Assembly: GCF_000026545.1 (NCBI RefSeq)
Contig: NC_011601.1
DNA from: Escherichia coli O127:H6 str. E2348/69
GTDB taxonomy: Bacteria; Pseudomonadota; Gammaproteobacteria; Enterobacterales; Enterobacteriaceae
DNA length: 64,000 nt
Strand: one strand, 5' to 3'
In this document: in pieces, positions 31,605 through 35,907 of the stretch
Numbering within the stretch: position 1 is the first letter of the stretch
Layout: each line of letters opens with the position of its first letter
Notes under the pieces: generated by a model
What the model was told of the DNA's origin: nothing
The model's input: the letters and a program-made list of their open reading frames with translations, nothing else
The model's database searches: none
Position numbers and translations under genes: made by a program

Positions 31605-32612
31605 GTGAGAAAAACCAAACGCGTTACTATTAAAGACATTGCTGAACTGGCGGGAGTGTCGAAAGCAACCGCCAGTCTGGTTCTCAATGGTCGTGGCAAA
31701 GAGTTACGTGTTGCGCAGGAAACGCGTGAGCGTGTGCTGAGTATTGCCCAACAGCAGCATTATCAGCCCAGCATTCATGCCCGCTCATTACGGGACAACC
31801 GCAGTCATACCATTGGTCTCGTCGTTCCTGAAATCACTAACTACGGATTTGCAGTATTTTCCCATGAACTGGAAACATTGTGTCGGGAAGCGGGCGTCCA
31901 GCTCCTCATATCCTGTACTGATGAAAATCCTTCACAGGAAACAATGGTGGTGAACAATATGATTGCCCGCCAGGTTGATGGGTTAATCGTCGCATCCAGT
32001 ATGCTGCATGATAATGACTATCAAAAACTTAGCGAGCAATTACCTGTTGTGTTGTTCGATCGCCACATGAACGGCAGTACATTGCCATTGGTCATTACTG
32101 ACTCTGTTTCTCCCACCGCCGCTCTGGTGGCAGATATTGCACGGAGTCACCCGGATGAATTCTATTTTCTGGGCGGACAACCCCGTTTGTCACCGACTCG
32201 CGATCGACTGGAAGGATTTACACAAGGCTTGCAGCAAGCCGGAGTAACGCTACAACCTGAATGGATTATTCACGGTAATTATCATCCGAGCTCAGGCTAT
32301 GAAATGTTTGCCGCGCTATGCGCTCGTTTAGGACGTCCCCCTAAAGCCTTATTCACTGCCGCTTGTGGATTACTGGAAGGCGTTCTGCGCTATATGAGCC
32401 AATATAATTTACTCGACAGTAAAATACACCTGGCGAGTTTTGATGATCATTACTTGTATGATTCACTTTCGGTAAGAATCGACACAATACAACAGGATAA
32501 TCGCCAACTTGCTTTTCACTGCTTTGAACTTATTTCGCAACTGATTGAAGGTGAAACGCCATCCCCATTACAGCGTTATCTTCCTGCCAGTCTACAAAAA
32601 CGCTACCGATAA
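31605..32612 (+). CDS. scrR: LacI-family transcriptional repressor of the sucrose regulon
   Basis: 335-aa ORF (GTG start) with N-terminal [26 protein letters not shown] and periplasmic-binding-protein-like effector domain. Confidence 0.85.
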
Positions 32613-33368: not shown

Positions 33369-33661
33369 AGCATTCTCTGTGAAGTGGATAATTGTTAATT
33401 ATTGCAGATCTCGCCGCAATATTCATGCTTTATTAACATTCTGTTACAGGCAGGTTTAAAGAAAAAAGCGAAACATATCGTTAATAATAAAAGGGAGTGA
33501 CATATTATGTCAGAAAGAAATAAAGTAAAGGGATTTTATCATGTCAAAAACATTCACCATAATTATATTTATCTTTTCTGTATTCATTTTTAATTATAAC
33601 GAATCTCAAATTACCGATACCGCCGTCAATTTATTTATCCAGCTTTAATAGGACATTTATA

Positions 33662-34534
33662 ATGCGCTATTTCATACTAATATTCACACTCGTGTGTTCC
33701 TTTGTTGCAGCCCAACCAACTATTGTCCCACAATTACAGCAACAAGTTACGGATCTTACGAGTAGCTTAAACTCACAAGAAAAGAAAGAACTGACGCACA
33801 AGTTAGAATCTATTTTCAATAATACCCAAGTACAAATTGCTGTATTAATTATTCCCACAACCAAAGACGAGACAATTGAACAATATGCTGCAAGGGTTTT
33901 TGACAATTGGCGTTTAGGAGATGCCAAACGCAATGATGGGATACTGATCATTGTTGCCTGGTCGGATCGCACTGTCCGCATCCAGGTAGGTTATGGGCTG
34001 GAAGAAAAGGTAACCGATGCTCTGGCTGGCAATATCATCCGTAGCATCATGATACCCGCATTTAAACAACAAAAATTAGCTAAGGGATTAGAGTTAGCTA
34101 TAATCGCTTTGAATAACCAACTCACTTCACAACACCAATATTCGTCTAATCCTTCAGAAAGTGAATCAGCGTCTTCCAGTGATCATTACTACTTTGCTAT
34201 TTTTTGGGTATTTGCAGTGATGTTCTTCCCTTTCTGGTTTTTTCATCAAGGCAATAATTTTTGTCGGGCATTTAAAAGCAGTGTTTGTATTTCAACAGTC
34301 TATCTTATAGATTTATTCCTGTTCTCCGATCAAACTTTTTCCATTGCTGTATTTTCCTTCTTTTTTGCTTTCACCACCATTATGGTCTTTACCTGTTTAT
34401 GTGTACTTCAGAAAAAAGCATCTGGTAGAAGTTATCATTCAGACAACAGCGGTTCCGGTGGTGGCTCAAGTGGCGGCGGATTTAGCGGCGGGGGCGGTTC
34501 TTCTGGCGGTGGCGGCGCGTCCGGTCGCTGGTAA
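33662..34534 (+). CDS. ygcG: TPM-domain membrane protein with Gly/Ser-rich C-terminal tail
   Basis: 290-aa ORF: signal peptide, TPM-like region, hydrophobic segments, tail [27 protein letters not shown]. Confidence 0.8.
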
Positions 34535-34542
34535 CTCAACCA

Positions 34543-34576
34543 TAAAAAATGCCAGCCCGAAGGCTGGCATTTTTAA
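34543..34576. terminator. bidirectional intrinsic terminator between ygcG and eno
   Basis: GCCAGCC-CGAA-GGCTGGC hairpin flanked by AAAAAAT upstream and ATTTTTAAA downstream; sits between convergent stops (34534 and 34594). Confidence 0.7.
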
Positions 34577-34593
34577 ATCAGATAAAGTCAGAC

Positions 34594-35907
<1,314 letters not shown>

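Follow-up and report, generated by a model that had tools for sequence, protein, structure and literature searches.

YgcG of Escherichia coli ends in a glycine- and serine-rich tail that is made up of two parts, a spacer of variable length and a block of 17 residues that terminates the protein. Comparison of homologues indicates that the block is conserved at the level of the protein, and that it is nearly exclusive to TPM-domain proteins whose genes adjoin lemA. The original prediction had treated the whole tail as simple sequence, a description that fails for its last 17 residues, which are conserved position by position across phyla and are under purifying selection acting on the protein. 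Its interpretation holds in part for the spacer, but is mistaken about the terminal block. In E. coli E2348/69 itself we are looking at an ordinary, annotated gene with a feature that is typical of its family.

The ygcG gene and the architecture of its product

The window is the whole stretch of E2348/69 DNA that was analyzed, of 64,000 nucleotides. Within it ygcG lies between queE and eno, and encodes an inner-membrane protein with a TPM domain, to which RefSeq gives the product name 'TPM domain-containing protein' or 'YgcG family protein'. The features discussed below are the following, with amino acids numbered as in YgcG.

33541-33648, + strand: 35-codon relic of the 5′ end of lemA (the yqcG locus), separated by 13 nt from the start of ygcG
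33662-34534, + strand: ygcG coding sequence, 290 amino acids plus stop (open reading frame list, RefSeq annotation, Pfam)
33662-33712, + strand: predicted Sec signal peptide, amino acids 1-17 (N-terminal hydrophobic peak 2.15)
33746-34114, + strand: TPM domain, amino acids 29-151 (Pfam PF04536 match), predicted to be periplasmic
34178-34240, + strand: membrane helix 1, amino acids 173-193 (AlphaFold2 helix, hydropathy peak 1.83)
34256-34321, + strand: membrane helix 2, amino acids 199-220 (AlphaFold2 helix, weakly hydrophobic, R201 and K204 at its predicted cytoplasmic start)
34337-34417, + strand: membrane helix 3, amino acids 226-252 (AlphaFold2 helix, hydropathy peak 2.29, ending ...VLQKKA)
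34418-34480, + strand: variable spacer, amino acids 253-273, predicted to be cytoplasmic (pLDDT below 50 at 253-272; length varies)
34481-34531, + strand: conserved C-terminal motif, amino acids 274-290 (C-terminus-anchored profile of 136 homologues)
34532-34534, + strand: ygcG stop codon
34544-34574, no strand assigned: probable bidirectional intrinsic terminator (A-run, TGCCAGCC-CGAA-GGCTGGCA hairpin, T-run; read by eye)

The protein has the organization of the LemA-associated membrane TPM type, with an N-terminal signal or anchor, a TPM domain and then one to three helices, as judged by hydropathy and AlphaFold2. Cleavage of the signal peptide is predicted after VAA, and since this is a typical signal peptide the TPM domain should be exported. 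The Pfam TPM_phosphatase model matches YgcG with E = 2.3e-35 (121.7 bits against a gathering cut-off of 22.1) over positions 1-123 of its 125, and AlphaFold2 models the domain with a pLDDT of 95-98. The model has the alpha/beta fold of TPM domains, and superposes on BA41 (5ANP), Rhom172_1776 (7TBR) and PG_0361 (2KW7) with TMt, the TM-score normalised to the target, of 0.78-0.90. When AtTLP18.3 (3PTJ) is included the Foldseek range becomes 0.73-0.90 at sequence identities of 17-38%, highest for BA41 (E = 4.9e-12, TMt 0.90) and lowest for AtTLP18.3. BA41, from Bizionia argentinensis, is the best sequence match of YgcG in the PDB (E = 1.3e-24). In all of these solved structures the TPM domain alone is resolved, and none of them has the tail motif. 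A phosphatase or nucleotidase activity has been claimed for some members of the TPM family, and is disputed (PMC12419801; PMC11237479).

The C-terminal side of the protein is where our analysis departs from the original prediction, in which a phenylalanine-rich putative membrane segment was placed next to the tail. That segment exists (amino acids 178-194, 34193-34243), but it corresponds to the first of three helices and lies ~70 residues upstream of the tail, and so is not adjacent to it. Immediately before the tail comes the third helix, at amino acids 226-252.

A conserved block at the C-terminus

The tail is plainly of low complexity, as had been recognized: amino acids 264-290 (34451-34531) include 16 glycine and 7 serine residues among 27, and the corresponding DNA is 70% G+C compared with 38% in the remaining gene, far from a chance composition. 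The interval originally assigned, 34420-34534, does cover amino acids 254-290 together with the stop codon, but it starts out of frame.

How well is this ending conserved? A search with HMMER of 1.84 billion cluster representatives returned 21,083 matches at E <= 0.001. Nearly all of the best 150 of these 21,083 align through the final residue, of query and match alike, and the same ending is found in 139 of the 150; the 11 that end otherwise are mostly truncated or short sequences. The consensus of the block is F-S-G-G-G-G-x-[F/S]-G-G-G-G-[A/S]-S-G-x-W-COOH. We constructed a profile from 136 C-terminus-anchored representatives that were pairwise no more than 50% identical. In this set F (61%) and S (64%) are preferred at positions -17 and -16, and are followed by glycine at 89-99% from -15 to -12. 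S or G is found at -11 and F or S at -10, preceding a second run of glycine at 92-100% from -9 to -6. Five of these glycines, at -13, -12, -8, -7 and -6, are present in 98-100% of the sequences. At -5 the residue is A in 79% and S in 21%; S at -4 (99%) and G at -3 (91%) come next, and after a variable residue at -2 the protein ends with W at -1 (99%). Upstream of -17 composition alone is kept, being G and S with some F, R, W or Y. The YgcG ending fits the family profile at every conserved position. Thus the tail divides into a variable glycine- and serine-rich spacer and the 17-residue terminal block.

The ranking of the 150 homologues is biased, as the tail itself adds to the score, and for this reason a reverse scan was made in which the TPM domain was not used. 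One genome per species, for ~100,000 species, was searched for DNA encoding GGGG-[A/S]-x-G-x-W followed by a stop codon. Among the matches listed there were 121 open reading frames in 120 stretches; 8 of the frames ran off the available sequence, leaving 113 that could be assessed. A TPM domain is present in 110 of these 113 (again among the matches listed). The other three comprise the latter half of a TPM gene disrupted by a frameshift, a protein of membrane segments plus tail that has no TPM domain and is encoded beside a TPM gene, and a scrap of 41 codons. The second of these comes from a metagenome-assembled genome of the Kiritimatiellales (L009:647-1096, - strand); it is a protein of 149 amino acids with hydrophobic segments and the ending ...GGGGSSGGW, and lies directly upstream of the TPM gene. 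It suggests that membrane segments and tail can form a polypeptide of their own.

The matches of the reverse scan come from at least 12 phyla, with names as in the sequence records. They include Bacteroidota, alpha-, beta- and gamma-Proteobacteria, 'Deltaproteobacteria', Verrucomicrobia, Lentisphaerae and Kiritimatiellales, together with Planctomycetes, Firmicutes, Ignavibacteriae, Nitrospirae, Elusimicrobia and Omnitrophota. Two other searches gave less. A profile of 40 tail residues run against 5.8 billion proteins found short fragments and small open reading frames alone, so that the architectures were not informative, and a protein search with the TPM domain only yielded 60 mostly partial sequences from E. 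coli and Shigella. Neither Pfam nor NCBIfam has a model that covers the tail.

No chain in the PDB carries the tail motif, and the sole match to the profile there is the engineered linker of an scFv (E = 0.59). Indeed, the only non-TPM sequences in the PDB that match the tail are single-chain constructs with linkers of the (GGGGS)n type. Such engineered linkers resemble the tail in composition and presumed flexibility. However, they connect one domain to another and lack a fixed register, whereas the tail of YgcG has F, A, S and W at fixed positions and ends the protein. A flexible linker, as once proposed for this region, is therefore not an apt description, since the tail joins nothing.

Genomic association with lemA

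Among the matches listed, 60 loci have at least 1.5 kb of flanking sequence on both sides of the tail-bearing gene, and in 53 of these 60 lemA adjoins it on the same strand. The YgcG family is one of very widespread bacterial inner-membrane proteins that are mostly encoded beside lemA. In many of the loci, chiefly proteobacterial, LemA has a lipoprotein signal (L-S/T/A-G-C-G), and in many others it has a basic N-terminus plus one helix. As LemA is either a lipoprotein or anchored by its N-terminus, the LemA domain is expected to be extracytoplasmic.

A second TPM protein, which is tail-less, is encoded near the tail-bearing gene in 30 of the 60 well-flanked loci among the matches listed. It is ~141-175 amino acids in length and has no hydrophobic N-terminus. 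It can be recognized by an N-terminal ...TSGEIRVHIE... and an acidic C-terminal ...HFP...D.NELPDEI.., with the protein ending ...NELPDEI.. (for example in loci L006, L010, L024, L030, L042 and L048). Having no signal peptide, this protein is predicted to be cytoplasmic, and it is probably of the type represented by BA42, a 'stand-alone TPM domain'. Beyond lemA and the TPM genes, no gene for a dedicated sorting or processing enzyme is conserved in the operon.

Selection and length variation

The original prediction held that the tail would be prone to variation in length by slippage during replication. We have compared the terminal block at the level of codons. Between ygcG and its K-12 counterpart the last 17 codons differ by three synonymous and no non-synonymous changes, and the comparison with two paralogues of other E. 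coli strains, TPM1 and TPM2, gives nine synonymous and one or two non-synonymous differences. With synonymous changes many and non-synonymous ones few, it is the protein, not the DNA, that is conserved within the block. Amino acid substitutions between YgcG and the K-12 protein are located in the spacer.

Among evenly sampled E. coli genomes there are 48 full-length matches to 34380-34600, each of exactly 221 nt, and nine partial matches to the sister allele in the same sample have no indel either. Tandem Repeats Finder reported nothing in 34300-34620, and perfect tandem tracts within the tail reach 12 nt at most. The length of the spacer does vary by lineage. In the TPM3-type sister allele there is a 12-nt indel (encoding SGGG) in the spacer, by which the third gene of the O157 type is longer than that of JSWP006 (L005:4149-5063 compared with L003:3189-4082). 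The corresponding spans of 196 and 184 nt are both common, at ~6:4 among the sampled genomes. Over the whole family, between 20 and 91 residues (median 44) separate the C-terminus from the last hydrophobic window. A slippage-like indel is thus found in the spacer of the sister allele, but in the present allele none of the 48 sampled genomes has a net indel. Across the family the spacer differs widely in length while the terminal block is fixed.

Could the tail then be a neutral, disordered extension whose length drifts by replication slippage? The spacer has properties that would be expected on this basis. It is modelled as disordered, its length varies by lineage, and the SGGG indel is polymorphic; moreover, 13 tail residues are absent from a metagenomic K-12-like fragment (P0009), and the glycine codons show no avoidance of identical neighbours of the kind that selection against slippage would leave (0.406 observed compared with 0.377 when shuffled, a slight excess). 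It does not account for a block that is conserved residue by residue across phyla under purifying selection, nor for the constancy of the allele in 48 of 48 sampled genomes with no tandem repeat. As an explanation of the tail we regard neutral drift as very improbable, and for the last 17 residues it is largely refuted.

Membrane topology

On which side of the membrane does the tail lie? We estimated the topology of 216 tail-bearing proteins from the length of hydrophobic spans and from charge, which is a crude procedure. Of the 216, 194 begin with a hydrophobic segment. The hydrophobic span that follows the TPM domain is 56-95 residues in 136 proteins, as expected for three helices, and no more than 30 in 48, as expected for one. 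In a further 20 it is 31-55 residues, compatible with two helices, and it exceeds 95 in the remaining 12. The mean net charge in these proteins is -0.30 in the 15 residues before the hydrophobic region and +1.33 after it, and 157 of the 216 have a tail with a net positive charge. The charges of YgcG itself follow the same pattern, with R201 and K204 after helix 1, D217 and D222 flanking the loop between helices 2 and 3, and K249, K250 and R254 after helix 3; the sister allele has nine lysine or arginine residues after the last helix.

From the helix counts and the positive-inside rule we infer that the extension is cytoplasmic, and so separated by the membrane from both LemA and the TPM domain. 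The TPM relatives of plants and cyanobacteria are lumenal, in agreement with an exported TPM domain, and for the homologue CrTLP26 three C-terminal helices have been predicted using DeepTMHMM (bioRxiv 10.1101/2024.10.28.620569).

A predicted beta strand in the terminal block

The full-length AlphaFold2 model, made with 117 aligned sequences, treats the two parts of the tail in very different ways. The pLDDT is below 50 at residues 253-272, and the spacer is probably disordered, as had been suggested for the tail as a whole. By contrast the pLDDT is ~91 at residues 281-290 (34502-34531), within which residues 281-289 form a beta strand. Thus the original suggestion of a disordered region carries over to the spacer but not to the terminal block as modelled in the full-length protein. 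The prediction would have been undermined by a tail that is invariant in length and also structured; the terminal block is invariant in length and is structured in the full-length model only, and the spacer is neither.

When residues 160-290 are modelled alone the pLDDT falls to 49-54 and no strand is formed, so the confident conformation depends on the presence of the TPM domain. All the other strands in the full-length model are in the TPM domain, and they are the only possible partners. Yet the TPM domain is predicted to be on the opposite side of the membrane, and the strand should not be taken at face value. The predicted strand conflicts with the predicted topology, and there are three possible readings of it. 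It may be an artefact of a method that is blind to the membrane, the tail may be periplasmic, or the model may report an interface with a homologous cytoplasmic TPM domain, that of the soluble paralogue.

If the tail were periplasmic it could act as a latch, folding onto its own TPM domain as an additional strand that caps or regulates it. In favour of such a latch, the strand at 281-289 is confident only with the TPM domain present, and the model has no strands other than those of the TPM domain with which it could pair. The architectures with one and three helices dominate the family, however (184 of 216), and a cluster of lysine and arginine residues follows the last helix, such as NKKLRAKYKKLSKERASRK in the sister allele or RRRQRHRH in a member with one helix. 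Both favour a cytoplasmic tail, and AlphaFold2 is unaware of the membrane. We consider a periplasmic latch to be improbable.

Relationship to known C-terminal extensions

[quoted passage not shown] This is the same feature as the tail of YgcG, but it is mentioned there only, and the preprint describes no positional motif, terminal tryptophan, topology, link to lemA or function. Psb32 proper differs in having one C-terminal helix and no such tail. YgcG is not Psb32: the NCBIfam model for Psb32 (NF047379) scores 35.6 bits against an equivalog cut-off of 160, a weak match in the TPM domain only. In the open-access literature we found no description of the positional motif with its terminal tryptophan, of its near-exclusive link to lemA-adjacent TPM proteins or of its predicted compartment. 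Open-access papers on YgcG, on LemA together with TPM, on COG1512 and on UPF0603 did not include a study of what the tail does.

Many C-terminal signals are short and anchored at the end of the protein. The GlyGly-CTERM, PEP-CTERM and LPXTG signatures of envelope proteins are short, conserved and end-anchored as the YgcG ending is, and the tail could by analogy be a signal for processing, sorting or degradation, the site of a protease or a modifying enzyme. The strictly C-terminal and invariant ending with its terminal aromatic residue would suit such a role. In signals of the sortase type the motif precedes a membrane helix and a basic tail. Here the order is reversed, with helix, basic residues and then motif, and the motif is predicted to be cytoplasmic; furthermore, none of the curated NCBIfam models for CTERM sorting signals matches YgcG at E <= 1, and the operon offers no conserved dedicated enzyme gene other than lemA and the TPM genes. 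A signal of this kind seems to us quite improbable.

Possible function of the tail

LemA and the TPM-domain proteins rank with the most widespread proteins of the bacterial envelope for which there is no agreed function. The 17-residue signature provides an experimental handle on them, as well as a simple marker for annotation of the subfamily, and it carries a warning that the glycine-rich tails of such proteins should not be masked as noise. The question worth following is what the invariant ...GGGGASGxW end binds.

We give a roughly even chance to the tail being a tethered cytoplasmic leash that carries a docking motif for a putative partner. The spacer would be the flexible leash, and the terminal block, with the free carboxylate of its tryptophan, would form a short docking motif that binds either a cytoplasmic partner or a neighbouring subunit. 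Binding would probably occur by addition of a beta strand, and docking would in this way connect the cytoplasmic face of the membrane with the LemA/TPM module in the periplasm. The proposal draws on the end-anchored register, the AlphaFold2 strand and a precedent from Bacillus subtilis. YdjH is, like YgcG, a TPM membrane protein. Two cytoplasmic proteins, PspA and YdjI, need it for their recruitment to the membrane, and each interacts with it in two-hybrid analysis (PMC8581546), offering a precedent by analogy for a cytoplasmic part that may serve as a docking site. There are also differences. The operon, pspA-ydjGHI, contains pspA and a gene for an SPFH-domain protein but not lemA, the C-terminus of YdjH is apparently ...GAGAVF and not ...ASGxW (as read from a cloning primer in PMC8581546), and the part of YdjH that binds PspA and YdjI was not mapped in that study.

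What might the partner be? The most obvious candidate is the soluble TPM paralogue. In a specific form of the docking proposal the terminal block would be a cytoplasmic docking peptide for the TPM fold, adding a beta strand to the soluble BA42-like paralogue of ~145 amino acids. Given a single chain, AlphaFold2 would then shift the interface with the paralogue onto the protein's own homologous TPM domain. If true, this would explain a strand that is confident and yet topologically impossible, and the LemA-TPM operons would encode an unrecognized trans-membrane module in which a conserved C-terminal peptide links TPM domains on either side of the inner membrane. That the paralogue is nearby in just 30 of the 60 loci (among the matches listed) counts against docking, as does the absence of LemA and of a second TPM protein from the 64-kb window. 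We judge this specific form to be unlikely.

The tails might instead associate with each other. Low-complexity segments of eukaryotic proteins that are rich in glycine and aromatic residues make reversible kinked beta contacts, and tails that stick together in this manner could cluster TPM proteins in patches of membrane with no separate partner. The composition of the YgcG tail is similar to that of such segments, with F, W and Y interspersed in the spacers. The tail is kept where neither LemA nor a soluble TPM protein is encoded nearby, three paralogues at a single E. coli locus have the same tail, and YdjH interacts with itself in the two-hybrid system (PMC8581546). The exact C-terminal register and the invariant A-S-G-x-W suggest on the other hand that a specific end is recognized, and not a composition. 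That the membrane-plus-tail fragment is unstructured in AlphaFold2 also speaks against self-association, although contacts between molecules cannot be seen in a run on a monomer. Self-association is rather unlikely in our view, and docking of the terminal block is the reading that we carry into the discussion of the E. coli locus.

Two forms of the locus in E. coli

The interval between queE and eno is dimorphic in E. coli, and contains either yqcG and ygcG or lemA with three TPM genes. The form with yqcG and ygcG, like that of K-12 and E2348/69, is found in at least 3,920 complete genomes, and a last gene of the TPM3 type in at least 783 (at >= 80% coverage). All three of the long loci that were examined, those of JSWP006, LF82 and O157, have lemA plus three TPM genes, and all three TPM paralogues of the long locus share the tail ending [A/S]SGRW. 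Parts of the long locus are themselves eroded or rearranged. TPM1 is truncated at 224 amino acids in O157 and is a pseudogene in LF82, and the third gene of LF82 is a recombinant in which the first ~68 amino acids are TPM3-like and the remainder is YgcG-like.

The 64-kb window contains no intact LemA and no TPM protein other than YgcG. Thus ygcG has no adjacent lemA on its strand; a 35-codon relic remains in its place. The sequence at 33369-33572 has 79% DNA identity to the queE-lemA region of JSWP006, with two ATG codons aligned, and megablast matches to the region are annotated as LemA. The start of the relic is the ATG homologous to that of lemA, and the N-terminal residues are still recognizable, while the lipobox cysteine has gone. 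In K-12 yqcG starts from 33508 onward in the numbering of the window; in E2348/69 the frame from this upstream ATG is interrupted and there is no RefSeq gene. These comparisons identify yqcG as a relic of the 5′ end of lemA. Since a lemA relic is present here, and other strains have an intact lemA with three TPM genes, the short E. coli locus reads as a decayed version of the long one. With the operon of E2348/69 and K-12 reduced to a lemA relic and ygcG, the tail in these strains, with the docking motif that we propose, may be what survives of a system that has been taken apart in part.

What is known of regulation fits a role in envelope stress. Sigma-S RNA polymerase binds in the intergenic region between queE and ygcG (PMC4447067), a sppA mutant of Flavobacterium shows induction of lemA and of a TPM gene (PMC13236525), and in K-12 yqcG is annotated as 'cell envelope stress response protein'.

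On the downstream side ygcG and eno are convergent. The hairpin at 34544-34574 is probably a bidirectional terminator common to both genes; it was not reported by a consensus terminator scan.

The body of ygcG (33662-34450) is 38% G+C, and the average for E. coli is ~51%. Over the 1.2-kb region compared the gene is 93.8% identical to that of K-12, unusually divergent beside the near-identical eno and queE. Low G+C content and divergence together suggest old allelic lineages or a horizontal origin. The other side of queE also differs between the two strains. In E2348/69 the region upstream of queE contains the csc genes for a LacI-family regulator and sucrose-6-phosphate hydrolase (31605-32612 and upstream), and in K-12 the same position is occupied by ygcE and a CRISPR array.
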